A DNA stretch of 64,000 nt. It comes from Candidatus Pacebacteria bacterium CG2_30_36_39 (lineage in GTDB: Bacteria > Patescibacteriota > Microgenomatia > UBA1400 > PJMF01). Positions within the stretch are counted from its first letter, which is position 1. Each line of letters begins with the position of its first letter. A program made the translations under genes and the position numbers. The notes beneath the pieces were generated by a model. It ran no database searches. It was not told the DNA's origin and worked only from the letters and a program-made list of their open reading frames with translations. The stretch lies in the NCBI GenBank assembly GCA_001873435.1, contig MNZB01000003.1, forward strand, positions 206,031-270,030, in the 5' to 3' direction. Positions 10,728-50,314 of this stretch are shown piece by piece.

Positions 10728-10744
10728 TTTTTTTTGAAAATAAA

Positions 10745-10772: not shown

Positions 10773-11214
10773 ATTTAACTATATTTTGTAATTTTGCCAG
10801 CCACTGTTGTAATGCCTCCAAATTACTTTCCATTTGTGGAAAGCCATCTATTTTTAAACTGTCCATAATTTTTTCAGCATTTTTACTTAACCAAAATTCT
10901 TCAATTTTATCGACAGCAAAACAAAAGTGTTCATAACTACTATCACCACAGCCAAAGGCTATGAATTTTTTGCCAGTAAAATCCATATTTTGTACTTCTT
11001 GGAAAAAAGCATCAAAATCATATTGAAGCAAACCATCATCCCAAGTTGATGAACCCAAGATTAATAGATCATAATTTTGAATTTCATTTGGAGAAAATTC
11101 ATTGGCATTAATTAGGTCATGTGTAACGCCAGATTGAGTTAGAAACTCAGAAATTTGCTCAGCTACATATTGGGTGTTGCCGGTTAAAGAACCGTATAAA
11201 AGAAGAGTTTTCAT
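10771..11214 (-). CDS. Flavodoxin (short-chain)
   Basis: 147 aa. FMN-binding N-terminus MKTLLLYGSLTGNTQYVAE and the typical acidic, W-containing loops. Confidence 0.8.
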   Translation of the reverse strand: MKTLLLYGSLTGNTQYVAEQISEFLTQSGVTHDLINANEFSPNEIQNYDLLILGSSTWDDGLLQYDFDAFFQEVQNMDFTGKKFIAFGCGDSSYEHFCFAVDKIEEFWLSKNAEKIMDSLKIDGFPQMESNLEALQQWLAKLQNIVK

Positions 11215-11280
11215 AGCAAAATTGTATCATTTTTATCTAATTCTATTGACCTAAGTCTACTCTAACCCTACAATTGCCCC

Positions 11281-33062: not shown

Positions 33063-33130
33063 GAGCGGGATTCGAACCCGCGAACGAAGGTTTTGCAGAC
33101 CTCGCCATTAGGCCACTCTGGTATCGTGCC
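33057..33130 (-). tRNA. tRNA-Cys (anticodon GCA)
   Basis: The minus strand reads GGCACGA...TCGTGCC acceptor with a U73 discriminator, anticodon loop CUGCAAA and T-loop GGTTCGAATCC. Not in the ORF track. Confidence 0.85.
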
Positions 33131-34141: not shown

Positions 34142-34153
34142 GCTAGCAGATTC

Positions 34154-34930
34154 TTATTCTGTTTCTGGTATTTCAGCTAAAACTGGAATTAGAATTGAGG
34201 CATAGAGGTTTAGGGCTTCATTGTCTGCAATCAGTGTTTCTTGATCGTTAAATATTTCGTCACTTGCTAATGATTCTCTGGCTACAACAATTATTGGAAT
34301 TGTTGGTACTGAGATTTGTTTGTCTAGTAATGCTTTGGAGATGAGTTTTTTTAGAGAGTTAATGGTTGCTCCAGAGCTGTAGACGTCATCGACAAAGGCA
34401 ATATTTTTTCCTTGTTGAATTAGGTTGATTATTTTTTCTAGAGTTTCTTCGTTAATAGCAAAGAATTTTGATGGATCGTTTGGTCCTAGGGTGATTGGTC
34501 TACATTCTTCTATCCAATATGTTTCTCCGTTGGGGCTAGCTAGTTTTACTACTTCGTCTTTGGTGTAGATGTGTTTTTGTCCGTTTTCTTGAGTTGATCC
34601 GCCAAGAATAATAATTGGTTGATTTTCAAGTTCGGCTTTAATATTTGCTTCTTGGATCATTTGTTCTGATTTTGAAGATGGTGCAGTGATGATTAAATCA
34701 ATTTTTAGTTTCTTTAAGAATTCAGCCAAAACATTGGCTCCTGCGATGCCTAGTTCTGGAGATCTTGGGTCTAGAATGGCAATGTATTCTGGGTGTTCTG
34801 TGGTTCCAACATTAATGATTGGAAGGTGAAATTTTTGGTTGTCTAAGGTTATTTCTAAGGAAAAAGTATCGTTACTTTCTTTTTTAATATTTTTAGCAGT
34901 GTAGATTTCGATCTCTTTTGAATGACTCAT
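34154..34930 (-). CDS. Phosphoribosyltransferase-domain protein with an N-terminal domain of unknown function
   Basis: 258 aa. The C-terminus has the type I PRTase PRPP-binding motif IAFVDDVYSSGATI. Confidence 0.5.
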   Translation of the reverse strand: MSHSKEIEIYTAKNIKKESNDTFSLEITLDNQKFHLPIINVGTTEHPEYIAILDPRSPELGIAGANVLAEFLKKLKIDLIITAPSSKSEQMIQEANIKAELENQPIIILGGSTQENGQKHIYTKDEVVKLASPNGETYWIEECRPITLGPNDPSKFFAINEETLEKIINLIQQGKNIAFVDDVYSSGATINSLKKLISKALLDKQISVPTIPIIVVARESLASDEIFNDQETLIADNEALNLYASILIPVLAEIPETE

Positions 34931-36369: not shown

Positions 36370-38091
36370 TTAATTTAATTTTGCCTTTTTGCATAATTCA
36401 AGCAAAACAGTCTTTTTTTCTAACGAAATATTTTTTGATTCCCAAGCTCTTAAAGCAATTTTTTCTGGATGAAATCTATTATGGTGAGTATAGATTCTAT
36501 CTGGCTTAAACTGTTCAATAGGAATGGCATCAACATCGTTGCTTGAAGCTACAACTAAGACATTTTTTTCAATTAAGTAACATGGAGCGGTATTGTTTTT
36601 AACAGCCCAAAAATAGACATTGTCCAACTGTTTAATTCCTTCAAGGGTTTTTTCATCACGATTGTTTGCTTGAAATTGAACTAGACTAGGATCTATTTGG
36701 TTGTACCAAGAAAAGAAAATATATGGTTGTGTGTCGGTATTTGTAAAATAAATTTTGTCGTAATTATGTCTGTTATTCCAGATTTCTGTACTAGCTTCTT
36801 TATAAAAACCATGCCAATAAGGCTCAGACATTTCTGGAAAATATATTAACCAATCATGAAAATATAAACCAAAGTTTAAGCCTAAGATTAATATAATACC
36901 TATTTTATAAAATAATGTGAAAGTATAGCTCTTGGTTTTTATTTTAATCCAACTAATACTATCAATGATTCCTTTTGCAGCGAAGAAACAGAGGGCTGGA
37001 ATCATAATGAGCGATCTATTTGGGTTGGTGTCACCACTTGTAAGAGTTGATGGGATTGGAGAGATGAGAAGCCATGATATGAAGAACCAATACATGTTGT
37101 TTCTGTTTTTTGTTGAAAAGATACCAATTATTAAGAATGGCACTAAAAATAAATAAAAGTTTCCATGTATGCTAAACGAAAAAGCAGCAGTTTGGTTGTT
37201 TGAGGGCAATAAATACTCTGGTGAAAAATGTGATGTATATTTTTTTCCCAACTGATTTATTACATACCAGCCTTTATTATTAAAGATTCTCACAAATGGG
37301 TAATTTAGGATTCTATTTCTATAAATCCCTTCTTCCGTTGCACTTGTTATTTCTGTGCTATTCCAAAAAAAGACAGTTTTAGCGCGTTCTCCTCCAAAAG
37401 AAAAAATAGCGTTGTATAGTATTAAAATACTTCCAATTACTAGTATCATCCATGGAGTTTTTTGTTTTAAAATTTGTTTCCAAAATTCTTTTTTATAAAA
37501 AATTATTTGATAAATAAATATTAGAACTGGAACAAATAGTCTGGCTGAATGATAAACATACATGGACATTAATAATAAAATAGCGCCAAGTATATTTAGT
37601 TTTTTATTTTTTACAGTCCAAAACCAGAGTCCCATTAGCATTAATCCAAGTGATGGCATTGGTTCAAAGGCAATTCTTGAGTAATGAAGAAACCATGGGT
37701 TTGTAACAAGTATTAATCCTGTAACTAAAGATAATTTATCTGCTTTTGGTTGGATAAATTTAATTAGCCCTAAAACTCCTATTATTGCAAGAATTACACT
37801 GGGTAATCTGGCCATAGTTTCATTTACTCCACCTATAATAAAAAAAGGAATAATGGCATATGATAAAAATGCAGATTTGTAGTCGCCAAATGATTTAATA
37901 AATAATGGCCAGTTTATCCCCCATTCGTCTTTTCCAGATTTTAATATGCTATAGGCACTGTATCCATTTGCTGATTCATCCCAATGAAAACCGTTTGGAA
38001 CAGAGCCTAAGTTGAATGAGGTTAAAAATATTCCAAGCAGAATAATTAAAATTAGATACAGATTAAATTTTTGAGTTAAAAACTTATACAC
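36370..38091 (-). CDS. Glycosyltransferase family 39 (ArnT/PMT-like) polytopic membrane protein
   Basis: 573 aa with about 11 TM helices. N-terminal region and loop motifs resemble dolichyl-phosphate-mannose / undecaprenyl-phosphate-sugar transferases. Confidence 0.6.
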   Translation of the reverse strand: MYKFLTQKFNLYLILIILLGIFLTSFNLGSVPNGFHWDESANGYSAYSILKSGKDEWGINWPLFIKSFGDYKSAFLSYAIIPFFIIGGVNETMARLPSVILAIIGVLGLIKFIQPKADKLSLVTGLILVTNPWFLHYSRIAFEPMPSLGLMLMGLWFWTVKNKKLNILGAILLLMSMYVYHSARLFVPVLIFIYQIIFYKKEFWKQILKQKTPWMILVIGSILILYNAIFSFGGERAKTVFFWNSTEITSATEEGIYRNRILNYPFVRIFNNKGWYVINQLGKKYTSHFSPEYLLPSNNQTAAFSFSIHGNFYLFLVPFLIIGIFSTKNRNNMYWFFISWLLISPIPSTLTSGDTNPNRSLIMIPALCFFAAKGIIDSISWIKIKTKSYTFTLFYKIGIILILGLNFGLYFHDWLIYFPEMSEPYWHGFYKEASTEIWNNRHNYDKIYFTNTDTQPYIFFSWYNQIDPSLVQFQANNRDEKTLEGIKQLDNVYFWAVKNNTAPCYLIEKNVLVVASSNDVDAIPIEQFKPDRIYTHHNRFHPEKIALRAWESKNISLEKKTVLLELCKKAKLN

Positions 38092-38179
38092 AACTCACAA
38101 GATTTTAATGATTTAATGAAAAATTAGCAATCTTAATAAAAAATAATTTTTTTGAAAACTGGTGAGCAACCGTTTGGCT

Positions 38180-38345
38180 GGTTCAAACTTTTTATCTGAT
38201 GTTGTCCATGCGTTGGAAGACTTTAAAGCCTTCATCGCGAGCATGGGCGAGGCATTTTTACCAACCCCTGCACTTGCATATTAGCCCACCCACGGTGTGG
38301 CCTACACCCCCTGCGTGGGAATTACCCTTAAAGGGGCGACATATA
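38180..38345. other. GC-rich (~55%) structured intergenic element; candidate small ncRNA or recombination site
   Basis: Nested inverted repeats: CCATGC...GCATGG enclosing GGAAGACTTTAAAGCCTTC, and CCCACG-GTGTGGCCTACACC-CCCTG-CGTGGG. No ORF. Lies between the GT39 gene start and the OLD-like gene stop, at the proposed island edge. Confidence 0.25.
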
Positions 38346-38412
38346 CTAATGGTATAGCTTGGTTTATAGGTTAAATAATACCTATATTGAAATATTCATA
38401 TTTCAATAAACA

Positions 38413-40311
38413 TTACTCAGAAATTGGTTCTGTCGGTGATTCTGTTTGAACAGGTGGCGAAATTTCTGTCATTATTTCCTCAACTACTTTTGCTAATTTC
38501 TCGAGATTCTTTTTTGAAGTGTTATCTAATTCATTCAATGTAATAGTACCGTCCTCCACTGCGTTAAAGAAACGAACTGCAAGTAACCCCTTTGATTCTT
38601 TCTTTGTCGGGTGTTTCATATACGTAGAATTCTCTTTAGAAATATCCTTGATATCAATCTGAGCAATCAATTTGGCAAAATTGTCTTTGCTGAAAACATC
38701 TTCTATGCCTTTGCAACCAGGAATTACACGTAAGATTTTGTCTAGTCTTTCTTTTAGTACGTCTCCCGGATATACCTCTTTTCGAACTTTTTCTAGAGTT
38801 TTTCTCCCACTGTCTTCATCATCAACTAATACGCCATATGTAATGCCCCAACCAAATAAAAGGCGCGCAAGTTGAGGTATTGTTGTTGTGCCATTGGCTG
38901 GAAGCAAATGAACATTTTTAATATTTTTGAGCTTGAAAAGTGCTTGTAGATAATAGCAAACACTTACTTCTTCAACAATTATATTGTTCGTTTTATCAAT
39001 AACATTTTGATTAGCAAAACTGCTACCCATGCAATCAAAAATTGGAGTCAATGTATCAGATGATAATGCCCCTAATTGATGTGCACTGAAAACACGCGTG
39101 TTGGCCAAACTATAGTCGTCTCCTTCAATGGTTTCTCTTTGAGCCGCAATTATCCTGTAAAGTCTAGTTAGGTCAAGCAAGTGGTGAGTATGTGTTGTAT
39201 AGATGACTTGAATATTTTTTTTAAGTGTTTCAAAAACTCTTAGTACATCTTCTTGTGCTTTAGCGTGAAGACTACCAGCAGGCTCATCAATTAGGAGTAT
39301 TAAATCTTTTTTAACACCATCGCTGTCCTCACTTTGTTTTTCACTTCTAACTGAACAAGCTTTTAATTGCAAATAAAACGACAAGAACCAGAGCAATCCT
39401 TTGCTTCTTTGTCTTGGGGAGAACTGCACCCCATTCTCAGCTATCCAAAAACTCAAATATGATTCTCCAACAAGCTCTGGTTCATCTTTACCATGTCTTT
39501 GGAAAACAACCTGAATTTCTAGCTCGTCACGATTGCCAATTTTTTGTGACCAAAATTGCCTAAAGTCAGCTGTGAACGAGCGGTATTTTTTTCCTAATTG
39601 GTTGTTTCTCAATCTATCACTAAGTAGTTCAAGCTCATCAACTTTAATGTCTAAAATTTCCAATAGATTCAAAACACCATGTAGTCCTTCAGTTTTGGGA
39701 TTTTTTTTGATGACATCTTTAATGTCAATTTTATCTGGAAGTAAGCTTTCAAAATCTACAAATTTTTGAAATTCAGGTAGAGATGAAACAACTCGGTCAG
39801 TAAACTCTTTAGCCGTTAGTTGTTTCACTGTTGGTTCTGGAGGAGCTGTTGGAGTCTCTGTTTTAGTTTCTCCCACAGTTTGTTTTTCAGCTGGTTGCGG
39901 TTCTGATTCTGGAGGAGCTATTGGAGCAAAAAGTGTTTCTAAATCAAGAAAGTTGATTTTTACTTCGTTCTTTGTCAGTGTCGACCAATTTCTAGTTAAT
40001 GAAATCCTGTTTTCTGCTTCTTTAATTTTTGCCTTCAATCCTCTTGGCAGTTCTCCCTCTTCAAAATTTTCATCAAACCAAGCTTTTTGAATCCTAAAAA
40101 CACAAGTAATCTCTGGAAAGCCGTCTTCTCGTAAAGCATCTGGATTAAGTTTTCCCGTTGAAAATGTTTCAAGCGCCTCGAGTATCGAAGTTTTGCCAGA
40201 CTCATTTTGTCCGATAATTGCTGAAATATTGTCTGCTGGAAAATTAAAAAAACCAGTATTCTGAATCGACTTAAAATTTGAAATTTTGCATGAAATCAAC
40301 TGAGTTCTCAT
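38413..40311 (-). CDS. OLD-family (overcoming lysogenization defect) ABC-type ATPase + TOPRIM nuclease; candidate anti-phage defence protein. A fused PARIS AriAB-like assignment is an alternative.
   Basis: 632 aa. Walker A GQNESGKTS. ABC signature/Q-loop region RSKGLLWFLSF. Walker B/D-loop LILLIDEPAGSLH. H-loop YTTH. C-terminal TOPRIM-like Glu (IIVEEVSV) and DxD (VLVDDEDSG). A Pro/Thr/Glu-rich low-complexity insert (APIAPPESEPQPAEKQTVGETKTETPTAPPEPT) sits inside the ATPase domain. No UvrD-like helicase partner is adjacent. Confidence 0.6.
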   Translation of the reverse strand: MRTQLISCKISNFKSIQNTGFFNFPADNISAIIGQNESGKTSILEALETFSTGKLNPDALREDGFPEITCVFRIQKAWFDENFEEGELPRGLKAKIKEAENRISLTRNWSTLTKNEVKINFLDLETLFAPIAPPESEPQPAEKQTVGETKTETPTAPPEPTVKQLTAKEFTDRVVSSLPEFQKFVDFESLLPDKIDIKDVIKKNPKTEGLHGVLNLLEILDIKVDELELLSDRLRNNQLGKKYRSFTADFRQFWSQKIGNRDELEIQVVFQRHGKDEPELVGESYLSFWIAENGVQFSPRQRSKGLLWFLSFYLQLKACSVRSEKQSEDSDGVKKDLILLIDEPAGSLHAKAQEDVLRVFETLKKNIQVIYTTHTHHLLDLTRLYRIIAAQRETIEGDDYSLANTRVFSAHQLGALSSDTLTPIFDCMGSSFANQNVIDKTNNIIVEEVSVCYYLQALFKLKNIKNVHLLPANGTTTIPQLARLLFGWGITYGVLVDDEDSGRKTLEKVRKEVYPGDVLKERLDKILRVIPGCKGIEDVFSKDNFAKLIAQIDIKDISKENSTYMKHPTKKESKGLLAVRFFNAVEDGTITLNELDNTSKKNLEKLAKVVEEIMTEISPPVQTESPTEPISE

Positions 40312-40459
40312 AGCTAGTGCCTCTACTATTCAATATTACGATGTTTTGGGCAGGTTACCATGAGATAATGGTTTAGCATTCACTATAGCACTTTTCTTGT
40401 GCTGCAAAAGAGCAAATTAATTTATATCCAATAATTCTGTGTCAAGTTCACCTGAACAC

Positions 40460-41182
40460 TTAAAATGAAAACGAAATTTCGGCTCCATTTTTTTTTAGTT
40501 TCATAAATCCTGGCAAGCCATGTGTTTCACCAAAATCATCAGTATAAATATCATCACCGCCAAATCTATCAATTTTGAAACCCAAATTCTTGAATTTATC
40601 ATCGTCCATATCAAGTCGATGTAGCGGATAATCAAATAAGATTTTGAAGTCTTCATCTTCGAAAGTACCCTCCTTGTACTTAAGGCATGGACTAAGAACC
40701 CATGCTCTGTTTCCATCAGCAAACTTAATCAGGCGTTCATACACAGAAAATTCTAAGTTAGGCTCAAACCCATCTTCATCACCAGCCACAATTGAAGAAT
40801 ACAACAAGTTGGTTGTGCCGTCTCTTTTCACGAGACCACTAAGGTTGGAACCGTTGTTATTGGTCGAAACAAAGTAGACATTCTCACCCACCAAATAGTG
40901 AAAGTGAACATAAGCTCTATTGCCAAGTTTCTCTCTGTATTTTTTGTGCCATAGTTCGTTATCTGCTTTACTCCAATCCTTATAGGGTTTGCCTGCACTC
41001 TTAATTCCAGTGAGTTCTCCAAACTTTGGATGACTCATTATTGCCTCCATAACATTCACATTGAAGCTTGTTGAGAATCCAGGGCCTCGCTCATCCTCTA
41101 TTTTTTCAAATCTTTTACTTATAGAGGAGGAAATGCTGTATAAAGAGAATCCGACAACGGCGGTAAAAATGTATGACCACAT
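40460..41182 (-). CDS. Hypothetical membrane-anchored protein (N-terminal TM + ~210-aa soluble domain)
   Basis: 240-aa ORF. N-terminal helix MWSYIFTAVVGFSLYSI. The soluble part is rich in D/E/F/G with no known motif. Immediately upstream of the OLD-like gene in the same orientation. Confidence 0.4.
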   Translation of the reverse strand: MWSYIFTAVVGFSLYSISSSISKRFEKIEDERGPGFSTSFNVNVMEAIMSHPKFGELTGIKSAGKPYKDWSKADNELWHKKYREKLGNRAYVHFHYLVGENVYFVSTNNNGSNLSGLVKRDGTTNLLYSSIVAGDEDGFEPNLEFSVYERLIKFADGNRAWVLSPCLKYKEGTFEDEDFKILFDYPLHRLDMDDDKFKNLGFKIDRFGGDDIYTDDFGETHGLPGFMKLKKNGAEISFSF

Positions 41183-41252
41183 GATGATTATTTTACATCA
41201 AACGATTTAATCTTGCCAGATGAACAGCACTCTCAAATGATATAATTACCTC

Positions 41253-41906
41253 ATGGATAATTATATTGACCAGTGGGAAAAATCCCAGCTGGATGACTAT
41301 GAGCTTAGGAGTTCTCAAGAGGCACTTTCTTTAGCAGCCAAGCAGAACCAAGACCTTGCAAACCAGAGTCGGGGACAGTTTGATATTTTTTATGACAAGA
41401 TTCTTCTATATTCAGCTGGTGCTTTTTCTTTTAGTGTTGCCCTGGTAGGGCTAGTCGTTGGCGACAGAATCAACGCTCTTGCAAAAGCAGGCTTTCTATA
41501 TCCAAATATCTATTGGCTCTACTTAAGCCTCGGTGGTTATCTCATCACATGTGCTATGGTTCTATTATCTAGACGTTTCGATGCTTTGTACCTTGGTCAC
41601 TTCGGCATGGCCAACTACTGCAAACGAAAGAGAGAACAACAGGAAGCTATACATCAGAAACTCCAAAATAGCCAAAGCAATGAAATTCTGGTGACAAAAG
41701 GGGGAACTCGAGAATCTGAAATAGAGATTTGTAAAAGTAACATCCAAAAGTTGAGAAATGCGGAAAATAAGAATGCAAACGCTAGGGATAGAGAACAATT
41801 CTTAAAAAGGCTTTGTCACCAGATTGCTGAATTAATAGTGGTCGTGGCGACTATACTTTTACTATTTTTTACCATTCAGCTAACCCAAGCAATGATTTGG
41901 GGTTGA
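41253..41906 (+). CDS. Hypothetical 2-TM membrane protein with N- and C-terminal helical cytoplasmic segments
   Basis: 217 aa. Two central TM helices (LLYSAGAFSFSVALVGLVV, WLYLSLGGYLITCAMVLL) and a third C-terminal hydrophobic segment. Coiled-coil basic region. Confidence 0.35.
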   Translation: MDNYIDQWEKSQLDDYELRSSQEALSLAAKQNQDLANQSRGQFDIFYDKILLYSAGAFSFSVALVGLVVGDRINALAKAGFLYPNIYWLYLSLGGYLITCAMVLLSRRFDALYLGHFGMANYCKRKREQQEAIHQKLQNSQSNEILVTKGGTRESEIEICKSNIQKLRNAENKNANARDREQFLKRLCHQIAELIVVVATILLLFFTIQLTQAMIWG

Positions 41907-41909
41907 TGT

Positions 41910-42428
41910 TTACTCTGGAATAACTACTTTTAATTCTTTAATTGCTTTACTAAGGGCAGGTTTTAGCCTATGTGAAATACTTGTGAGCTGTCCACCATGA
42001 TTCCTTTGTATTTCTTGATTATGTGTGTAAAGGTTTATTTCTTCGTTGTATAGAGCAACTTCGTTATAAAGACTAATCAAGGATTTTTGTTCTTCAGGTT
42101 TCCACCAATATAAATACATTTTCGTTGATTCCCATGCCGAATCCGGAAATCTCCTATTCCTTGGTAGGTCCTTAACCATATCACTCATCTGCATAATCTC
42201 AGCGTGAATCCAATTCTTGGCTTGTTCAACTCTTTCCATTTTTTCTCTTTCGTCTTTAGCTCTCTCTTTTTTTGCCCTTTCTAACTCTGTTTTTTGAGAC
42301 TGTTCTACCGTGGCATCAATGCTTTTCCTTGTAGCCCAGATAGTTGCAAGGGCACCTGCAGCAGAGCCAATTACACCACTTCCTAATGAGAGAAACACTT
42401 GAAACCAGTCAATCATATTAATGTTCAT
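41910..42428 (-). CDS. Hypothetical TM + coiled-coil protein; last gene of the hydrolase-NTase operon
   Basis: 172 aa. N-terminal TM (WFQVFLSLGSGVIGSAAGALATIWA) then a K/E-rich coiled coil. Start overlaps the upstream gene's stop by 4 nt. Confidence 0.4.
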   Translation of the reverse strand: MNINMIDWFQVFLSLGSGVIGSAAGALATIWATRKSIDATVEQSQKTELERAKKERAKDEREKMERVEQAKNWIHAEIMQMSDMVKDLPRNRRFPDSAWESTKMYLYWWKPEEQKSLISLYNEVALYNEEINLYTHNQEIQRNHGGQLTSISHRLKPALSKAIKELKVVIPE

Positions 42429-43489
42429 TTATATTCCTCCGGCAACTCAATCCCAAACCTCTCACAAAGTGCTTTAACATCATGGAAGTCGCTCGCTCTC
42501 AGCTTATATCCTGTATGAAATTTGACCATCCACTCTGGAGAAATACACTTCACCTCTATATTGTCAACACAACCTTTGCCGCTAAGTGCATCTTTATGAT
42601 AGGAATTGCCGTTTTCTACTGGGCCATAAATACCATTGCCATTTTCATCTAAATTAATAACATGAAAATCAACGAATCGAGCATTTTTGTCACCCATGAT
42701 AAAATTCCAGTCGGTTTCATCACCTCTTTTTACTCGATTAAAACCTCTTACTTTAAGTAGATTAACTACGGAAGTCACGTCCTTTTGTTGAAGAACTAAA
42801 TCAAGGTCACCATGAGCTCTAGTTTGCTTCTCCAATAGAGCATCAACGCCCCAGCCACCATCAAGCCAAAATTCAATATTTTTATCTTTGAATTCTTTTA
42901 TAAGTTCCAACACATACTCCTCTGTCATTGCATCACCCGCGATATGATGCAAAAGAAAAGGAAACTGTCTATATGCTTCGCCAAATGTGCCAACGCTAAA
43001 ATGCTTTTGTCCTGGCAAAACAATTAAATCGCCACCAATTTTTTCATATAGGTATTCAGCGTGCTCGAGAGGGCAATAGGGGTCATTATCTGAGTGGATG
43101 AAGTACCATGTCAGAGACTTTGAATTAATTTTCTTAAAGTCAAATGGTGTGATGAAAAGGTCTTTAAGAGAATCCCATCCCAAATCATCTTTGAATGAAC
43201 CCACTAAGTAGCAGGCTTTGACAACAACACCCTCTGGCAATGCTTGCAAAAGACCGAGAGTAGCTACAGCCCCTGATGAGTGACCAATGATTGTGGTCTC
43301 CTCATCAAACTTCCAGTTTTTGTTGCTCAAAATGAATTCGTTATATCTCTGAATATTGGGTTTATCAGCTCCAGGCAAGTTAGGTGTCCAAACCTCGTAA
43401 CCTCGTGACTTTAATTCAGTCTCAAGCCAAGGAAACCAATTTTCTTGGGAATTGCCGTTTGTGCCGTGGAGGATGAGCGCTTTTTTCAT
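42425..43489 (-). CDS. Fusion protein: N-terminal alpha/beta serine hydrolase (RBBP9/YdeN-like) + C-terminal ANT(2'')/Lnu-type nucleotidyltransferase
   Basis: 354 aa. N-terminal ILHGTNGNSQENWFPWL with nucleophile elbow GHSSG. The C-terminal half aligns to ANT(2'')-Ia: WLDGGWGVDALLEKQTRAHGDLDL vs WIGGGWAIDARLGRVTRKHDDIDL. Its tail VKCISPEWMVKFH compares with VRCNSWEAIIWDY. Confidence 0.7.
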   Translation of the reverse strand: MKKALILHGTNGNSQENWFPWLETELKSRGYEVWTPNLPGADKPNIQRYNEFILSNKNWKFDEETTIIGHSSGAVATLGLLQALPEGVVVKACYLVGSFKDDLGWDSLKDLFITPFDFKKINSKSLTWYFIHSDNDPYCPLEHAEYLYEKIGGDLIVLPGQKHFSVGTFGEAYRQFPFLLHHIAGDAMTEEYVLELIKEFKDKNIEFWLDGGWGVDALLEKQTRAHGDLDLVLQQKDVTSVVNLLKVRGFNRVKRGDETDWNFIMGDKNARFVDFHVINLDENGNGIYGPVENGNSYHKDALSGKGCVDNIEVKCISPEWMVKFHTGYKLRASDFHDVKALCERFGIELPEEYK

Positions 43490-44001
43490 AAATCAATTAA
43501 AGGCTCATCACCTTCCTCCCATACTTCTTCATTAAAAAATTTCATTTTCTTTGGTGTGATTTTGTACATCCTCCCTTTTATCAGTTTCTTCATCATGCCT
43601 TCGTACGTATAGGCATCACTCTTAACATTCAGTGTATTCCTCCAAAGTTTGAGAGCATGAACAATTTTGTTTTTGCTGGTAATCTGCTCTGCTAGTCCAA
43701 AAATCTGAATCCCCATTTTCTTGCTTGCAGGATTTTGTGGTGAATCGGCAATAGCTACCGCCACTTGTGGGTTAGCGGTAATGTGCTTACAGTGAATCGT
43801 TTCTGGGTTGCTTAAGAAATACAAATTCAAGTCATCGTCAAATGAGTAATAAACAGTAGCAATCCAAGGATGTTCTCCCTGAGTTGCTATAACCATTTGT
43901 ACTCTTTCAGTTATGTATTTTCTAGCTAGGTCAAATGCTTTTTTATCACTCATAGACTTCAATCTTCTCAACGTCAACCATTTTGCCGTCAGCCATCTCA
44001 A
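43486..44001 (-). CDS. Pyridoxamine 5'-phosphate oxidase-like FMN-binding split-barrel protein (general stress protein 26 family)
   Basis: 171 aa with a PNPOx-like fold signature. Overlaps its neighbours by 4 nt (operon). Confidence 0.5.
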   Translation of the reverse strand: MRWLTAKWLTLRRLKSMSDKKAFDLARKYITERVQMVIATQGEHPWIATVYYSFDDDLNLYFLSNPETIHCKHITANPQVAVAIADSPQNPASKKMGIQIFGLAEQITSKNKIVHALKLWRNTLNVKSDAYTYEGMMKKLIKGRMYKITPKKMKFFNEEVWEEGDEPLIDL

Positions 44002-44335
44002 ACAGTATGCCTACATTAACCTCTGATTGGTTAACAACGGCATGTGGTAAATATGAAGGCACTTCAATTAGTAAAATTTGCCCATCTGGGTGCATATGTT
44101 CTTCATACTTTGCGCCATTTTCATCTAGCCACACAAACAGTAAGTCACCAATACCAATGAACCATTCTGTTCTTGGATGTTTGTGATTGCCACCAATACT
44201 CAAAGGTGCTAAGTGAACTATCTGTTGGTCTTTGATTTTTTCCTTACCAACAGGAATGTCATCTGTGTTGAGTACCCAGACATCGGTATCAGGTTTTTTG
44301 TAGGTGTAATTTAGTTTGGTGATGATAGGTGTCAT
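43946..44335 (-). CDS. Cupin-domain protein
   Basis: 129 aa. Cupin His/Glu motif region (GGNHKHPRTEWFIGIGDLLF ... HAVVN). The 3' end overlaps the PNPOx-like gene by 56 nt in another frame. Confidence 0.45.
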   Translation of the reverse strand: MTPIITKLNYTYKKPDTDVWVLNTDDIPVGKEKIKDQQIVHLAPLSIGGNHKHPRTEWFIGIGDLLFVWLDENGAKYEEHMHPDGQILLIEVPSYLPHAVVNQSEVNVGILFEMADGKMVDVEKIEVYE

Positions 44336-44340
44336 GTTAT

Positions 44341-45264
44341 TTAATTTACCTGTGTGAGATATTCTCCATTACATGCGTTAACTATTGCTTCAACCCACTG
44401 CTCAGCATTTTTTCTCATTGAATCTTCAGTGCACCATGCAAGTTCGGGGCCTGCCCAAACATTTCCTTCGAAGTTTTCCATCTTAGCCTTACCATCTTCA
44501 AATGCATAACCATATAAGTTACCATTCTTAACCATTTCTAGTAGTAAATCGTGGTTATAAACGGCATGAACATCACTTACAAACATTGCAGTTTTCTTCA
44601 TTGATTTAAGCATGTCGTCAGTCAGCATTCCTTGCGTTTCATCATTTTGGGCAACACAAGGGATGATTACATCAGATGTTTTCAATAACTCTTCAAGTTC
44701 TACACGCTTAAAACGGTCATCCTTTGAACTTTTTGACCAATACTGAACATTCATACCAAGCCCATGACAGTTTTCTGCTACAGCCGTGCCTATATTACCT
44801 ATTCCTATGACTCCTGCAGTTTTGCCTCGTAACTCAATACCTTGATGGGCAATATAATCCTGCTTCCAGCTATCTTTGATAATGATAGGTAGTTTACGTG
44901 CCAAAGCTAGCATCATCATTGTTGCCCACTCTGCGACAGCAATGCTAGAAAAGCCGCGGAGATTCATCACAGGAATGCCTTTTTTTTCTGCGAAGTCTAC
45001 ATCAATCCAGCTAAAAGAAGTTGTTTGCAAAACTATAGCTTTCAGTTGTGGTATTTTGTCGATTATCTTGTTCGGCACTTTCCAATCACAAAAATCAGGG
45101 TCAATAGCAAGAATTCTCTCTTCATTTCCTTCAAGTAAGCCAGGTATTTGTTCAAACGGTGTAATGTCAGAATGAAGGATTACTTCACTGACATCATTAA
45201 GCTGAGACATCTGCTTTTCAGAAAGTAGTGCTTTAATATTTGGGCTAATGAGAAAGAGTTTCAT
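44341..45264 (-). CDS. D-isomer-specific 2-hydroxyacid dehydrogenase (NAD-binding; glyoxylate/hydroxypyruvate/phosphoglycerate dehydrogenase-like)
   Basis: 307 aa. Rossmann GVIGIGNIGTAVA and catalytic R/E/H-region motifs. First gene of the operon. Confidence 0.8.
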   Translation of the reverse strand: MKLFLISPNIKALLSEKQMSQLNDVSEVILHSDITPFEQIPGLLEGNEERILAIDPDFCDWKVPNKIIDKIPQLKAIVLQTTSFSWIDVDFAEKKGIPVMNLRGFSSIAVAEWATMMMLALARKLPIIIKDSWKQDYIAHQGIELRGKTAGVIGIGNIGTAVAENCHGLGMNVQYWSKSSKDDRFKRVELEELLKTSDVIIPCVAQNDETQGMLTDDMLKSMKKTAMFVSDVHAVYNHDLLLEMVKNGNLYGYAFEDGKAKMENFEGNVWAGPELAWCTEDSMRKNAEQWVEAIVNACNGEYLTQVN

Positions 45265-45542
45265 ATAAGCTTCATTTTAACTCAAAAAAGCTCTACACCA
45301 AAACCAATATTGCAAAGTATGCAAAAATTCACAACATAAATAATCGCTAGTTGAGGTATAATATCCCCATAACAAAGAGATGACCTAAACTTGGTTTTTC
45401 GAAATCAGGCATGGTCAAAAAACTCACAACGGTTAAAGCCCCTCGCTGGGGAATTCGTTGTGAGTCGTACAGGGAAACTTGTGCGGGTGGAGACACCTAA
45501 ACCGGCGGGGGACTTTTGCGTCTTCCGGCCGAAAAGGCCGCA

Positions 45543-46238
45543 ATGAAAAAACTACGACAACTAATTACATCAATTCTTCCAGCAGTTTTATTATTGCTTT
45601 TAATTGGTACTGGTGTAGCCTTTGCACATTACCGCGAGCAACAAATCACTCAACGTGTTCAACTTGTGGTTTCACCAACCCCAACATTAAAACCAACCTC
45701 AAATCAGTTTCCAAGGGCAACCCCATTACCAAACACTGTACAACCAACCACCAAAAAAGCTTTTGACAATATTACTTGTACAGGGCCTGACGGTAAGCAG
45801 TTCCAAACTACTCAGAAAGAATGTGAAAACTTCAACGCCGCCTGGGGCAACACCTCTAAAACTCAACTAGCACCTGCTGATTTACCAAGTCAACAAAAAT
45901 ACACTGAAACCCAAAATGGACAAAAACAGCCACCTTGTACCGTTGGTGGTTATACCTATTATTACACTGACCCCACTACTTGTGCCCGTTGGCAACAAGA
46001 ACAAAAAGAATTTGAAGAATCACTAAACAATATACAGTACGTTTTTACTCCACCAGATACCACGACTATTCAACCAGATAATACCGTAGCGAAAGAAGCT
46101 TGCAAGTCCGCCGCACAATCCGAATATAACTCAGCAGTAGCCGCTGCTCAAACCTATGGCGGCAATGTGCAGACTGCAGCATTAGAGATTACTCGCAATG
46201 ACCTTAATTATAAACTTGGAAAATGTGAAGGCTTATAA
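45543..46238 (+). CDS. Secreted Thr/Gln/Pro-rich protein with conserved Cys pairs
   Basis: The ORF track starts at 45516 (TTG). The ATG giving MKKLRQLITSILPAVLLLLLIGTGVAFA is a classic signal peptide and has an AAAGG SD, so it is the likelier start. The mature protein has 6 Cys. Confidence 0.45.
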   Translation: MKKLRQLITSILPAVLLLLLIGTGVAFAHYREQQITQRVQLVVSPTPTLKPTSNQFPRATPLPNTVQPTTKKAFDNITCTGPDGKQFQTTQKECENFNAAWGNTSKTQLAPADLPSQQKYTETQNGQKQPPCTVGGYTYYYTDPTTCARWQQEQKEFEESLNNIQYVFTPPDTTTIQPDNTVAKEACKSAAQSEYNSAVAAAQTYGGNVQTAALEITRNDLNYKLGKCEGL

Positions 46239-46239
46239 A

Positions 46240-46563
46240 ATGGAAATAAAGATATTAAAACCAATCAATATCATACTTATCTATGGCGTAATTGTGTCTG
46301 TCTTGTTTACTACTATGGCACTCTATACTTGGCCCCAATTGACCTCGGACGGCACGAGATTCGGTTATGAAACTTGTATTGAGACAAGTCGTGAAATGGG
46401 TAAAGACATTTGTGATGCTTGGACAGATGACCCCTCATATTACCGCCCAGCTGGTGGCGAACTCTACGCAATACTAACAAGAGTTGCTATTCTGGTGGGA
46501 ATTATATGGTTTCCAACTAGTGTGTATCAATGGAATAAGCTAAGAACAAAAGAAGCAAAGTAG
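46240..46563 (+). CDS. Small 2-TM membrane protein
   Basis: The ORF track starts at 46198. The internal ATG at 46240, 1 nt after the upstream stop, gives a 107-aa protein that begins with a TM helix (translational coupling). Confidence 0.35.
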   Translation: MEIKILKPINIILIYGVIVSVLFTTMALYTWPQLTSDGTRFGYETCIETSREMGKDICDAWTDDPSYYRPAGGELYAILTRVAILVGIIWFPTSVYQWNKLRTKEAK

Positions 46564-46624
46564 TATGCAAAACTCACTTCGGAGTGTCTAGTCTGATAGT
46601 CTTTTCTTCAAGCCTCTATCTCAA

Positions 46625-47116
46625 TTGATTTCGGCAAATATTATCATGAGCTCCAGCAAAAGGGTGGTTGAAGCCACACCGCAAATTTCCATTTCTAGCG
46701 TTAAAGATTTTGTCAGTCAACGAAATTCAGTCGTTCAACTGAGCCTCACTAATAGCATTGGCAACCAATCACCTTATTTCGCAAAAACCACAACCACGAA
46801 ATGCTATTTTGGTGGCACTAGACCTTGGTTTGAGTGTAATTTATGTAGTAAAAGAGCAGGAAATTTATATCTCAATGAGAACGGCACAGACTTGTTTTGC
46901 AGAGTGTGTTCTAATCTTCGCTACCGTTCTCAAGGGTTCAGTGGTAGCTCACGTTTACTGATGATGGCCTTTGATGCTGATGAAAGAGCCGAAGCCGTTT
47001 TTAAGGGGCCACAGAGGGTCAAATTTCTCTATAAAGGTAGACCAACCAAGAGATTTAAGCGATTTTTGAAATATCGACAGAAAGCCGAGCGATTAAGTCG
47101 TATATTCACCAATTAA
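46625..47116 (+). CDS. Hypothetical protein with a zinc-ribbon-like CxxC...CxxC
   Basis: 163 aa. CNLCSKRAGNLYLNENGTDLFCRVC. Basic C-terminus. Confidence 0.3.
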   Translation: MISANIIMSSSKRVVEATPQISISSVKDFVSQRNSVVQLSLTNSIGNQSPYFAKTTTTKCYFGGTRPWFECNLCSKRAGNLYLNENGTDLFCRVCSNLRYRSQGFSGSSRLLMMAFDADERAEAVFKGPQRVKFLYKGRPTKRFKRFLKYRQKAERLSRIFTN

Positions 47117-47256
47117 ATTTGCTATTGCAGAACAATCACTAAGAATTTAAAATGTGACTCACTAGACTTCCCTGGATTCTACGCAGAATCCCTTTTAGTT
47201 CTAGTTACAAGCAATCCTATTAATAACGGCTGGCGAGCCGAAGGATTTTTGTAGCT

Positions 47257-48204
47257 ATGAACATTTCATTTTCCCTTCCCAAAGATAGAGTAAAAATGTT
47301 GTTTGACCCCAAGATAGCTAAATCGGTGGGAACTGACTCGGCCATTATTCTACAAAATATTGAATACTGGGTAACTCGTAAAGAAGAAGAAAGCTCAGAT
47401 TCGAATTTTCATGGTGGGCACTACTGGACTTACAACAGCTCCAGAAGATTCGCCGAGATATTTGACTGGATGCATGAACGAAAGATTGCCCGATGCCTTC
47501 AAAAACTTGAAGTAAAAGGTTATCTTATCTCTGGTAATTACAACAGGCATCAGTATGACCGCACAAAATGGTATTCACTCAAATGCAACCGACAAGATTG
47601 CACACTTTGCAATGGTATCAACCAAAAACGTCTAAAAGATTCACCTGCCAGTTCTGATGCTGGTGACAACAATGTCCAACCTATACCAGATACTAAACAC
47701 AGAGTAAATAAACCACCTATTAATCATTATTCTGGTTTGGAGCAAACCAGTGTACATGTAGAGGTAGATGACACCAACTTTCTTTCTCTTGGTTCTGAGC
47801 GAAGCTCGAGCGAGCGGTCTAAAGGCGATAGCCGTAGCGTAAAAAACCGCCCAATGAGTAAGCGATTAGCCAACAAGGCTCGAACACTTAGAGAAAGATT
47901 AAGCCTTGTTCATGGCTACAACATTCATTTCTATGAAGCTTGGGAAGAGAAATTTAGGAAGCCCTATCCATGGTCAGAAGATTACGAAAGCGAAGAAGTG
48001 TGGGAAAAAATGAAGGAATTAGAGCAAGAATGGGGAGAAGAATTTGAAGTATTGATAGAGCTTTACTTGCTTCAAGAGTTCAGAGGAAAGACAAATTCTA
48101 GGATACATCACTTTCTATCTGACCGAATTCAAAACAACCTTCAAAATAAGATTATTACCTCAAGTATGAAAAATGAACATAGAGAAAAAATACGCGGATG
48201 TTAA
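47257..48204 (+). CDS. Hypothetical protein with an N-terminal winged-helix-like DNA-binding region and acidic C-terminus (possible replication/regulatory protein of an integrated element)
   Basis: 315 aa. The N-terminal ~110 aa (IEYWVTRKEE...HGGHYWTYNSSRRFAEIFDWMHERKIARCLQKLEVKGYLISGNY) resemble phage/plasmid replication-initiator or DnaD-like wH domains. Serine- and acid-rich C-terminus. Confidence 0.35.
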   Translation: MNISFSLPKDRVKMLFDPKIAKSVGTDSAIILQNIEYWVTRKEEESSDSNFHGGHYWTYNSSRRFAEIFDWMHERKIARCLQKLEVKGYLISGNYNRHQYDRTKWYSLKCNRQDCTLCNGINQKRLKDSPASSDAGDNNVQPIPDTKHRVNKPPINHYSGLEQTSVHVEVDDTNFLSLGSERSSSERSKGDSRSVKNRPMSKRLANKARTLRERLSLVHGYNIHFYEAWEEKFRKPYPWSEDYESEEVWEKMKELEQEWGEEFEVLIELYLLQEFRGKTNSRIHHFLSDRIQNNLQNKIITSSMKNEHREKIRGC

Positions 48205-48429
48205 CTTGCTTGAAATGAAAATTACTATGAGCCTCTTCAACTATAACTGCAACTACAAGCCCTCACAAGAGATTTTTAAAAGTCAAGAATGTCTTTTTTT
48301 CACACTCAGTGTTATAAACACCTCACAAGCATTTATCTTTTATAAATAACTGCATAATCTAGGCACGCCTTTGAGTTTCAAATTTTGAGCTCCACCTGTG
48401 TGACTTGATGAAGCGCGGAAGCACTCATC

Positions 48430-48648
48430 ATGTCCAAAAGGCATTCTAGCGGTCGACAAGCGACGACTGGCTTACCAAACCCCCAAAACAGTCCTGCCCA
48501 ACAGTACAAATTTTCGAGTGATGAACTCGATAACCTTGTCGATTCTTTTATCGACTTGATTATTGACGACTTCATTGTGAAGTATCGCTCGGGCCAGCTT
48601 GATGTGTCTGTGTTGAAAAAGAAGGGAGTAAGTATGTTTGAAAAGTAG
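48430..48648 (+). CDS. Small ORF upstream of the serine recombinase (candidate recombination directionality factor or regulator; uncertain)
   Basis: 72 aa, co-oriented with and 55 nt upstream of the recombinase. It conflicts with antisense ORF 48378..48728, so either could be spurious. Confidence 0.2.
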   Translation: MSKRHSSGRQATTGLPNPQNSPAQQYKFSSDELDNLVDSFIDLIIDDFIVKYRSGQLDVSVLKKKGVSMFEK

Positions 48649-48702
48649 GCCTGTAAAAAGACCAAGGTTGAAATTATAATAAGTAAATGAAAGTATGAGT
48701 TT

Positions 48703-50253
48703 ATGAAAAATAAAAAAGAAACAATCAATATAAATAGAGCCTGTCTATATCTAAGGTTTAGCGATGATAAGCAAATTGGTGGAACATCAATTGCAGTTCA
48801 AAACAAATCATGTCGTGACTACTGCGCAATACATGAATGGAAAGTAGTAATAGTTGAGAAAAACGAAGCAGTCACAGCTAAAACCTCAAATATCCGTAGA
48901 GTTGCAGAATTACTAGAATTTTGCAAAAGAAATAAGGGTAAATTTGAGGTACTCGTGGTCTTCAAGCTTAATAGATTTGCTCGAGACCAAGCAATGCACC
49001 ATTATCTGAGGTCAGAACTTCTAAAATTAGGTATTTTATTACGTTCTGCCACTGAACCAATAGATGAAACTCCAATGGGTAAGTTAACTGAAGGAATATT
49101 AGCTGCTTTAGCTGAGTTTGATAATGGTGTTAAGTCTGAAATGGTTAAAGCAGCTCTTTGGCGCAGAGTTGAGGAAGGCATGTGGCCATGGCATCCGCCA
49201 CTTGGCTATATGTCAATTCGTCAAAAGGATGAGAAAGTGAAAGCTCACGTACCAGACCCAGGGCTTGAGCAAGCAATTATTGACCTTTTCACCAGTTTCT
49301 CAACGGGCACTGTCTCTCAATTCGATTTGTCAAAAGAGTATGCAGCCAAGAAATTAACAGACTATAAAGGGAGAACAATTAAATTTTCACCCCAGTCGGT
49401 CAATAATATTCTTAACAACCGCTACTATATGGGAATCTTGGTTCATGAAGATGGCAGGCATATCCAAGGAAAGCATAAAGCTATTATTAAGCCAAGTTTG
49501 TTTGAGAAATGCCAGTATATCTTGCACAAAAAGTCTAATGGCACCGCTGGAAGTCAACGACTGCACGATAACCCAGAATTTCCCTTGAAACCAACCTTGC
49601 GCTGTGCAAGTTGCAAGGAGTTATTGACGGCTCAGTTTTCCAACTCTGCAAGAGGTACTAAGCATCCTCATTACTTTTGCAGAAATAATAAGTGCAATTT
49701 ATTTCGTAAAACGTACAAGCGGTCAAAATTAGAGAATGAGTTTGGCATCTATTTGCGACAAATTAAACCAACTAAAGAGTTTGTAAAGCGGTTCCAGGAG
49801 AGATTCCTGGACCGCTACAAAACCCGTGAGCTAGACCTAAAAGGTGAGTATTTGCGAAAGCTTGGAGATGTGCAAAAACTCGAGAAAGACCTTAAGTTTG
49901 TTATTGACCAAGGTAAGAAGGGAGTTTTGAAAAATGACACTTTCAAGAATGCTATTGAGGAAGTTGAATCAAAGCTTAGTTTAGCAAAAATGTCACTGCG
50001 AGAAACTCATGGAGAAGAGATTGACGTTCAGCTTTTGATGGCTTATGCGGAGAGCTTTATTCAAACCATTGAAAAAGTCTGGTATGACGCTCCATTTGAG
50101 ATTAAGAAGAAAATTCAGAATTTTGTTCTGCCTGGTGGCGTTTACTTAACTAAGACCAGAGAAGGCTATTTTTTTTCGAACCCTCAATTAGGTGGATTGT
50201 TCCAACTAATTCAGGATTTTGGTGCTGATGATTCAACTGTTGTGACCCCATAG
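48703..50253 (+). CDS. Large serine recombinase (integrase)
   Basis: 516 aa. Resolvase catalytic domain with the Ser nucleophile in YLRFSDDKQ. Recombinase domain. Zinc-ribbon Cys cluster (CASCKELL...HYFCRNNKCN). C-terminal coiled coil. The last 11 nt overlap the 3' end of tRNA-Glu. Confidence 0.8.
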   Translation: MKNKKETININRACLYLRFSDDKQIGGTSIAVQNKSCRDYCAIHEWKVVIVEKNEAVTAKTSNIRRVAELLEFCKRNKGKFEVLVVFKLNRFARDQAMHHYLRSELLKLGILLRSATEPIDETPMGKLTEGILAALAEFDNGVKSEMVKAALWRRVEEGMWPWHPPLGYMSIRQKDEKVKAHVPDPGLEQAIIDLFTSFSTGTVSQFDLSKEYAAKKLTDYKGRTIKFSPQSVNNILNNRYYMGILVHEDGRHIQGKHKAIIKPSLFEKCQYILHKKSNGTAGSQRLHDNPEFPLKPTLRCASCKELLTAQFSNSARGTKHPHYFCRNNKCNLFRKTYKRSKLENEFGIYLRQIKPTKEFVKRFQERFLDRYKTRELDLKGEYLRKLGDVQKLEKDLKFVIDQGKKGVLKNDTFKNAIEEVESKLSLAKMSLRETHGEEIDVQLLMAYAESFIQTIEKVWYDAPFEIKKKIQNFVLPGGVYLTKTREGYFFSNPQLGGLFQLIQDFGADDSTVVTP

Positions 50254-50314
50254 GGAGTCGAACCCTACTTACCAGGATGAAAACCTGGTGTCCTAACCGA
50301 TAGACGATGGGGCC
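50243..50314 (-). tRNA. tRNA-Glu (anticodon UUC)
   Basis: The minus strand reads GGCCCCA...TGGGGTC acceptor, anticodon stem-loop CCAGG-TTTTCAT-CCTGG and T-loop GGTTCGACTCC. The 3' end overlaps the recombinase stop region. Not in the ORF track. Confidence 0.8.

Follow-up and report, generated by a model that had tools for sequence, protein, structure and literature searches.

What does an enzyme that joins a serine hydrolase to a nucleotidyltransferase do in a tightly packed row of five genes of an uncultivated bacterium? The question is raised by a gene of Candidatus Pacebacteria bacterium CG2_30_36_39 (GTDB lineage Bacteria; Patescibacteriota; Microgenomatia; UBA1400; PJMF01), located in a stretch of 64,000 nucleotides (nt) that we call the window (assembly GCA_001873435.1, contig MNZB01000003.1, positions 206,031 to 270,030, forward strand). 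An earlier note on this DNA had described an operon centered on the fusion gene, with a product acting either on a small molecule or on a protein or nucleotide target. From sequence comparison, structure prediction, and the gene neighborhoods of homologues, we consider it probable that the gene encodes a genuine two-domain fusion, that it is variable cargo of an integrative element inserted at a tRNA-Glu gene, and that its product serves as an accessory detoxification or resistance enzyme.

Domains and predicted active sites of the fusion protein

The fusion protein of 354 amino acids (aa) consists of a YdeN/RBBP9-type serine hydrolase in its N-terminal half (aa 1 to 185, nt 42935 to 43489) and an Lnu/ANT(2'')-type nucleotidyltransferase (NTase) in its C-terminal half (aa 186 to 354, nt 42425 to 42934), joined head-to-tail without a linker. 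Both assignments, already made in the earlier note, are borne out by Pfam: residues 5 to 167 match Ser_hydrolase PF06821 (2.2e−13, 50.9 bits versus a cutoff of 22), and residues 193 to 341 match Aminoglyc_resit PF10706 (2.5e−28, 99.5 bits versus a cutoff of 21), with the latter match spanning positions 2 to 149 of the 149-position profile. A sequence search of PDB with the fusion returned LnuA (4e−18), YdeN (8e−11), and RBBP9 (9e−10).

The NTase motif GGW...HGDLDL is located at G211-G212-W213 and H226-x-D228-x-D230. In an alignment of 23 homologues, G211-G212-W213, H226, D228, D230, and D274 are invariant; the pair of catalytic aspartates, the lack of which the earlier note had named as a refutation, is therefore in place. 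The hydrolase motif G69-H-S71-S72-G73, together with D136 and H163, is conserved in the same alignment, with S72, D136, and H163 invariant and S71 found in at least 90% of the aligned sequences, and the junction between the domains is free of gaps. Both predicted active sites are intact.

The AlphaFold2 model, for which the homologue alignment served as input, has a mean predicted local distance difference test (pLDDT) score of 92.4 and a predicted template modeling (pTM) score of 0.90. Foldseek matched the hydrolase half of this predicted model to YdeN (1UXO, TM-score 0.90) and RBBP9 (TM-scores 0.79 to 0.87), and the NTase half to LnuA (4FO1, TM-score 0.86, root mean square deviation 2.3) and 4WQK (TM-score 0.69). 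None of the solved structures searched with Foldseek covers both halves. The fusion is thus predicted to have the two-subdomain NTase fold of LnuA and ANT(2'')-Ia, and the pTM score of the predicted model implies a defined packing of the two domains.

Could the open reading frame (ORF) nevertheless be an assembly or frameshift artifact that joins two genes, as the earlier note had allowed? One member of the 90%-identity cluster of the fusion, a gene call from a sibling Pacebacteria metagenome-assembled genome (MAG), covers only the C-terminal half (167 aa; P0241, OIP74240.1), and a local frameshift or a difference in assembly or gene calling could account for it. Against an artifact stand the continuous reading frame, a predicted model that is confident across the junction, the presence of the identical 354-aa protein on 42 contigs from several sources, and 52 divergent full-length homologue clusters of the same architecture from independent assemblies (341 to 377 aa, 49 to 77% identity), which a homology search for the fusion elsewhere recovered. 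Because the exact protein recurs on so many contigs and its architecture in so many clusters, the fusion is not a frameshift artifact; we give that explanation, refuted by the independent assemblies, practically no credence. The gene is predicted to encode a genuine two-domain enzyme.

The homologue clusters that bear source names are all labeled as Patescibacteria or Pacebacteria. Database labels for the fusion range from "hypothetical protein" in Candidatus Pacebacteria MAGs to "alpha/beta hydrolase" and, at JGI, "lincosamide nucleotidyltransferase." Metagenome and genome scans with the fusion alignment were dominated by single-domain genes and added only three loci (L138, L139, and L006), and the viral contigs searched for the fusion gene yielded just stand-alone NTases, mostly 32 to 42% identical.

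Origin of the two halves

The two halves have relatives of different kinds. The NTase half is 45 to 58% identical to members of a very large family of stand-alone proteins of ~171 aa (>2,000 clusters) from Acidobacteriota, Chloroflexi, Rokubacteria, actinomycetes, and others, and the hydrolase half is 50 to 70% identical to stand-alone hydrolases of Patescibacteria. In a neighbor-joining tree, all 53 fusion C-terminal halves form one pure clade, and the N-terminal halves fall into one bipartition together with two truncated fusions and one stand-alone protein. Split versions are almost absent among the relatives of the fusion. These patterns suggest a single fusion event within Patescibacteria, between a resident YdeN/RBBP9-type hydrolase and a stand-alone PF10706 NTase, as a likely although not proven origin.

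In Patescibacteria, the YdeN-type hydrolase module is always N-terminal in its fusions (proteins or loci P0058, P0061, P0065, P0070, P0073, P0077, P0079, P0080, and P0082; L023, L034, and L037). One of these combinations, with an unannotated region of ~270 aa, is a large family of proteins of 455 to 459 aa.

The five-gene array and the neighborhoods of other fusion genes

In the window, the fusion gene occupies fourth place among five minus-strand ORFs, which follow one another in the order that the earlier note had given: a 2-hydroxyacid dehydrogenase, a cupin-like protein, a PNPOx-like flavoprotein, the fusion, and a transmembrane (TM)/coiled-coil protein, the gene of which lies just outside the range that had been assigned to the operon. 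The overlaps of 4 to 56 nt claimed for the array stand only in part. The PNPOx/fusion and fusion/TM-protein junctions are ATGA overlaps of 4 nt each. The 56-nt overlap between the cupin and PNPOx genes is a product of the longest-ORF TTG start at 44001, and with the ATG start at 43953 ("MSDKK") it shrinks to 8 nt (ATGAGTGA); the dehydrogenase and cupin genes are separated by a gap of 5 nt. Scans for promoters and terminators around the array gave nothing above chance, and the tight packing makes a single transcript for all five genes plausible. Every NCBIfam equivalog score of the dehydrogenase is far under its cutoff, and the TM/coiled-coil protein has no significant family match in Pfam, PADLOC, or PHROG.

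The array could represent one dedicated pathway that oxidizes or reduces, isomerizes, hydrolyzes, and nucleotidylates one and the same small molecule. The apparent translational coupling of all five genes is what such a pathway would lead one to expect, and one of its associations does recur: PNPOx-like and hydrolase genes are adjacent in the window and in L023 and fused in P0073 and P0079, and the PNPOx-like protein of the window is 39% identical (E = 2e−37) to the PNPOx domain of P0073, whose fusion partner is the same hydrolase module. No other link recurs. At 11 other fusion loci, the gene neighbors are wholly different: GNAT (L001); TPR, GH25, and GT87 (L002); UPRTase (L004); RibD_C, NUDIX, HD, and AKR (P0002); RibD_C, NUDIX, DUF5680, YecM, and AKR (L086); APH, dCMP deaminase, and two NUDIX genes (L088); MFS, S51, Hydrolase_4, EamA, SDR, and APH(6) (L090); varied genes (L091 to L093); and S51, GNAT, and NUDIX (L218). 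With homologues of the dehydrogenase, cupin, and TM protein found beside none of these 11 loci (tblastn), not even beside the homologues of 73 to 77% identity on sibling elements, the five array genes are, judged from gene context, not a conserved pathway or a unit centered on the fusion, and that part of the original description has to be given up. A dedicated pathway is largely refuted by this comparative context and by the complete replacement of the gene content between sibling elements described below, and we regard it as very unlikely.

In most of the fusion loci, neighboring genes overlap by 4 to 17 nt. A TATAAT-like box is located 10 to 15 nt upstream of the fusion ATG in five loci, and several genomes appear to express the fusion gene on its own.

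An integrative element with a variable cargo slot

If the five genes are not a pathway, what holds them together? Comparison with related loci places them in the variable cargo slot of an integrative element of ~12.1 kb that is inserted at the 3′ end of a tRNA-Glu gene (Table 1). An OLD/AriA/GajA-like ATPase gene shares the slot with the five-gene array. Nucleotide homology with the closest loci is limited to discrete blocks, namely, the integrase gene, orf163, the LOOT RNA, the fusion gene, and a block of ~255 bp (38152 to 38406); the homologous fusion block spans almost exactly the start to the stop codon. Among the backbone ORFs, for which no family matches were found in Pfam or PHROG, orf240b, orf121, and orf163 are 79%, 93%, and 80% identical, respectively, to their protein counterparts in L138, and orf163 is also found in L088, L086, and L222. 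The GC content of the element is 38.8%, compared to at most 37.1% in any of 56 other segments of the same length.

Table 1. Features of the integrative element and of its cargo, and LOOT RNAs in sibling elements. Coordinates are those of the window unless another locus is named.
Feature	Location	Strand	Evidence or remarks
Whole integrative element, ~12.1 kb	38162..50245		att junctions, GC contrast, sibling at same site in L222
attR core GTGA (38162-38165), then split-off 40-codon integrase tail (VSNRLAGSNFLSDVVHALEDFKAFIASMGEAFLPTPALAY*)	38162..38284	+	
OLD/AriA/GajA-like AAA ATPase gene, defense-type cargo	38413..40311	−	Pfam AAA_15, AAA_21; PADLOC AriA 7e−23, AbiLi, Old, GajA
TM/coiled-coil protein gene, 172 aa	41910..42428	−	ORF; overlaps fusion stop by ATGA
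Hydrolase-NTase fusion gene, 354 aa	42425..43489	−	Fourth gene of array; Pfam PF06821 and PF10706
PNPOx-like/YhbP-like flavoprotein gene	43486..43953	−	Pfam PNPOx_N 5.6e−8; start revised to ATG 43953
Small cupin-like gene, 129 aa	43946..44335	−	Weak Cupin_2 (0.0046) and WbuC-cupin matches, both sub-threshold
D-isomer-specific 2-hydroxyacid dehydrogenase family gene	44341..45264	−	First cargo-array gene; Pfam 2-Hacid_dh_C 3.6e−28, 2-Hacid_dh 2.8e−13
LOOT RNA, Rfam RF03000	45382..45497	+	77 bits versus gathering score of 46.4
Backbone ORFs downstream of LOOT RNA	45516..47116	+	orf240b (probable start near 45543), orf121 46198-46563, orf163 46625-47116
Replication-initiation/DnaD-like gene	47257..48204	+	PHROG 11233 "replication initiation protein" 5.7e−31; PHROG 6493 "DnaD-like helicase loader" 1.3e−19
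Large serine recombinase (integrase) gene, 516 aa	48703..50253	+	Pfam Resolvase 2.2e−22, Recombinase 3.3e−9; PHROG 95 "integrase" 9.8e−69
attL crossover core GTGA	50242..50245		Last 4 nt of tRNA-Glu; three-way comparison with L086 joined form
tRNA-Glu	50242..50314	−	tRNA call; element inserted at its 3′ end
LOOT RNA, L086	2216..2350	−	
LOOT RNA, L088	3295..3424	−	
LOOT RNA, L138	7648..7779	+	
LOOT RNA, L222	806..938	−	

The ends of the element can be read from a split in its own integrase gene. Nucleotides 38162 to 38284 encode the final 40 codons of the integrase; the reading frame runs on across the join, and the tail is conserved in both L086 and L088. Thus, attP lies inside the integrase gene, and integration splits these codons off to the other end of the element. 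In L086, the ~255-bp block adjoins the 3′ end of the integrase gene, which a three-way alignment identifies as a joined, attP-type junction; the homology with L088 ends at 38162. In the integrated form seen in the window, the last codons of the integrase gene extend into the tRNA-Glu gene. The predicted attP junction reads ...CAACTGTTGTGAGCAACCGTTTGG..., a pattern that has no match in the viral contigs, and the predicted empty attB junction reads ...GAAAACTGGTGACCCCATAGGG... A look-up of the flanking 573-aa gene found no empty attB site and led to the sibling element of L222. Two loci, L007 and L091, have tRNA-Glu without this element, although their flanks differ from those of the window.

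No virion genes were found in the element. We rejected a prophage because PHROG matches are limited to the integrase and the replication initiator. The element is probably also replicative. It is delimited to the base pair, in an uncultivated lineage for which little is known of mobile DNA.

Downstream of tRNA-Glu, in the stretch next to rplS-pyrG, a hydrolase-family gene occurs in three configurations: a stand-alone hydrolase with a second alpha/beta hydrolase (L007, 4997 to 7276), an inverted fusion without an integrase (L091, 5001 to 8311), and the fusion within the element (window, 42425 to 50314). This site looks like a recurrent insertion hot spot.

Two further observations concern the chromosome around the element. 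Directly outside attR, the 573-aa ORF (36370 to 38091, minus strand) has no match in Pfam, PADLOC, or PHROG, and the contig collection lists the identical protein in 44 index blocks (24 contigs read). Next to tRNA-Cys (33056 to 33130), two adjoining ORFs on the minus strand (33206 to 34930) have weak matches to HD (0.0065) and PRTase-CE (1.7e−4), domains that have been reported in conflict systems; they may represent a second accessory island.

LOOT RNA and sibling elements

Between the cargo array and the backbone genes, and divergent from the array, lies a LOOT RNA at the head of the backbone genes. A full-length LOOT RNA is found in all five loci that share the backbone, at the boundary between backbone and cargo and 20 to 50 nt upstream of a co-oriented small ORF. 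Weaker matches occur in two hydrolase-only Patescibacteria loci (L049 and L142), and none in ~100 loci from outside the Patescibacteria. The main text of the paper that described the discovery of the LOOT motif does not discuss it. For this orphan RNA, a first consistent genomic context makes its role experimentally approachable. The element and its association with LOOT RNA appear to be new observations, which are limited here to one lineage of Patescibacteria.

The sibling elements reveal how freely the cargo changes. L222 has a ~99%-identical chromosome with an identical attR junction, and the sibling element that it carries shares the backbone blocks and has a LOOT RNA of 100 bits. The cargo of this sibling comprises a KAP NTPase, HEPN_AbiU2, a 215-aa ORF, and an EamA-like gene, and the fusion gene is missing. 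The cargo of L138 comprises a nucleoside deoxyribosyltransferase, Zn-ADH, DegT, a kinase, and NUDIX. Of the five backbone-sharing loci, three have the fusion gene in the array, one has it next to the array, and one lacks it. Because a sibling of the element lacks the fusion and L138 carries a different cargo, the fusion is swappable cargo. HEPN_AbiU2 is found in the cargo slots of both L088 and L222, and the slot mixes defense-type and enzyme genes.

In L086, the integrase gene is decayed (10501 to 11643, minus strand), with an orf163-like N terminus joined to integrase residues 244 to 515 and the tail; the catalytic resolvase domain is missing and the attP-type junction is preserved. In L138 (1819 to 2276), the fusion stop is followed directly by ...AGAAGTGTGACCCCTGGGG..., which resembles the GTGACCCC core of attL/tRNA-Glu; of the integrase-tail block, just the inner 110 bp come after this core-like sequence, and the fusion lies outside the rearranged end of the element.

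Likely function of the fusion

Given its two predicted active sites, the fusion is most likely an accessory enzyme that modifies small molecules by adding a nucleotide to a hydroxyl and by hydrolyzing an ester or amide. Judged from its resemblance to Lnu and ANT(2'') enzymes in sequence and structure, the NTase domain would transfer a nucleoside monophosphate from a nucleoside triphosphate to a hydroxyl of a sugar-containing small molecule, with two Mg2+ ions held by D228/D230 and with D274 as the catalytic base. The hydrolase domain, with its S71/D136/H163 triad and hydrophobic pocket, would cleave an ester or amide that carries a hydrophobic group in the same or a related compound. Together, the two domains would constitute a detoxification or resistance cargo that benefits any host of the element. 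The co-cargo at other fusion loci includes genes with a detoxification or resistance look (APH, APH(6), GNAT, EamA/MFS, NUDIX, and AKR). The neighboring PNPOx-like flavoprotein may cooperate with the hydrolase domain; the dehydrogenase, the cupin, and the TM protein probably travel with the fusion as unrelated cargo. Activity of the enzyme would mean that ultra-small Patescibacteria harbor mobile enzymes that modify small molecules.

Several observations weigh against the favored explanation, its single origin of the fusion included. The closest relatives of the NTase half are the thousands of uncharacterized stand-alone environmental proteins, and the half is just ~38 to 40% identical to Lnu(C) and ~29 to 31% identical to Lnu(A); with identities this low and a score of 125 bits versus the Lnu(D) cutoff of 325, conservation of the substrate cannot be assumed. 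The co-cargo elsewhere is also of a nucleotide-salvage type (NUDIX, deaminase, and kinases), which makes an endogenous substrate possible. The clade of fusion C-terminal halves, and with it a single origin, has weak bootstrap support (2/30). Finally, the hydrolase module has further fusion partners (PNPOx, HD, NUDIX, a C39-like peptidase, the unannotated ~270-aa region, and a second hydrolase), and because so many of them are unrelated, its union with the NTase may stem from tight gene packing instead of pointing to a shared substrate.

This last point leads to the explanation that the fusion is without functional meaning: adjacent genes with ATGA overlaps fuse easily, and each domain would then have its own, unrelated substrate. 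The partner families of the hydrolase module are the same ones that occur as separate neighbors in the arrays, where genes overlap by a few nucleotides. Yet hydrolase and NTase have stayed joined while diverging to ~50% identity, their two sets of catalytic residues intact and their junction free of gaps; split versions are nearly lacking, and the predicted model has the domains packed in a defined manner. We regard an accidental fusion as credible, given the many partners of the hydrolase, but rather unlikely.

The NTase might also act in nucleotide signaling or on a protein or nucleic-acid target, as in the cyclic oligonucleotide-based antiphage signaling system (CBASS) or SMODS-like systems, in which case the element would carry it for defense; the earlier note had considered a protein or nucleotide target of this kind. 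Defense-type cargo is indeed present on these elements, as the OLD/AriA/GajA-like ATPase in the window and HEPN_AbiU2 and the KAP NTPase in siblings. However, the fusion has no PADLOC match, its sequence and predicted fold group with the small-molecule O-nucleotidyltransferases LnuA and ANT(2'')-Ia, the domain measures only ~165 aa, and many fusion loci have no defense genes nearby. A CBASS/SMODS-like role is, in our assessment, highly improbable.

Beyond the favored explanation of an accessory detoxification or resistance enzyme, we put forward a broader proposal that is speculative and, taken as a whole, unlikely. Its premise is that the window harbors a member of an undescribed family of small integrative and replicative Patescibacteria elements, which target tRNA-Glu, have attP in the 3′ end of their serine integrase gene, and carry LOOT RNA exactly at the boundary between a conserved backbone and a cargo slot whose content is exchanged as a whole from sibling to sibling. 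The fusion would be their most frequently retained cargo and a truly bifunctional inactivator of one antibiotic-like compound. An example of such a compound would be a lincosamide-type molecule whose sugar is adenylylated and whose amino-acid amide is hydrolyzed, and the enzyme would offer portable protection to genome-reduced epibionts.

Comparison with known systems

The element resembles large-serine-integrase elements and archaeal elements of the SSV1 type. In SSV1-type elements, attP lies inside the gene of a tyrosine integrase, and the ORF is split upon integration. The window element has an integrase with Resolvase and Recombinase domains, a short core, a tRNA gene as its target, and an integrase ORF that is split upon integration. 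In contrast to the SSV1 type, its recombinase is a serine and not a tyrosine recombinase, and it loses only the last 40 codons, which leaves the catalytic part whole. It also differs from both groups in its LOOT RNA, its wholesale-replaceable cargo array, and its Patescibacteria host. Integron cassette arrays are similar in that a conserved platform stands beside co-directional, heterogeneous small genes whose content is wholly different between close relatives, but the window element has neither an IntI tyrosine recombinase nor attC sites. We rejected an integron because the recombinase is of the serine type, gene overlaps of 4 to 8 nt exclude recombination sites, and a search for a motif conserved around the fusion in 12 loci found none.

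The hydrolase half shares with YdeN and RBBP9 the fold, the Ser-Asp-His triad, and a similar hydrophobic pocket, and differs from them in being the N-terminal module of a fusion. To our knowledge, the natural substrate of YdeN of Bacillus subtilis is unknown. Both the fusion and RBBP9 have a GHSSG nucleophile motif, and in the alignment that of the fusion stands opposite the Ser75 motif of RBBP9. The latter enzyme is an aromatic aminopeptidase with a pocket formed by Y99/L103/F140/L141 and with Glu108 as the anchor of the alpha-amine (PMC8866121). The pocket residues align with F99/L103/Y138/C139 of the fusion, and Glu108 falls opposite an alignment gap, for which reason aminopeptidase activity of the fusion cannot be assumed.

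The NTase half belongs to the same Pfam family as ANT(2'')-Ia, in which the H42A, D44A, and D86A mutants are inactive and Asp46 helps to coordinate Mg2+ (PMC4313920). H226, D228, D230, and D274 of the fusion are the counterparts of His42, Asp44, Asp46, and Asp86, respectively. The two proteins differ in that their sequence similarity is confined to the N-terminal, NT-fold part, and the structural match is weaker than that to LnuA (TM-score 0.69). The substrate-binding residues of ANT(2'')-Ia are markedly unlike even those of Lnu(A) (PMC4313920).

With Lnu(C), Lnu(D), Lnu(P), and Lnu(A), the fusion has in common an NTase domain of ~165 aa, the fold, the GG[W/S] and HxDxD motifs, and a third acidic residue; like the lnu genes, the fusion gene is borne on a mobile element. 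It differs in its added serine hydrolase, in its host from an uncultivated Patescibacteria lineage, and in that its family is assigned from sequence and predicted fold. The best NCBIfam matches of the NTase half are Lnu(D), Lnu(C), and Lnu(P), at ~120 to 125 bits versus cutoffs of 300 to 325, and the cutoffs of the named enzymes are not reached (Lnu(D), 124.8 bits versus 325; Lnu(C), 119.6 versus 300; Lnu(A), 71.6 versus 300). Resistome surveys could count such fusions as resistance genes via the JGI label, even though they score far under the curated cutoffs.

Bifunctional enzymes of the AAC(6')-Ie/APH(2'')-Ia type unite two established resistance enzymes that act on one drug class. The fusion is similar in having two small-molecule-modifying catalytic domains per polypeptide and in residing on mobile DNA, whereas its hydrolase partner comes from no known resistance family and any shared substrate of its two domains is hypothetical. 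The earlier note had stated that this combination is not among the described architectures of resistance enzymes, and our literature search likewise found no paper that describes it. The fusion combines two known enzyme families in a domain architecture that is new, and the curated cutoffs do not place it among the named Lnu enzymes. Should it prove active, the Lnu/ANT(2'') family would gain a two-domain member with a second, hydrolytic activity.

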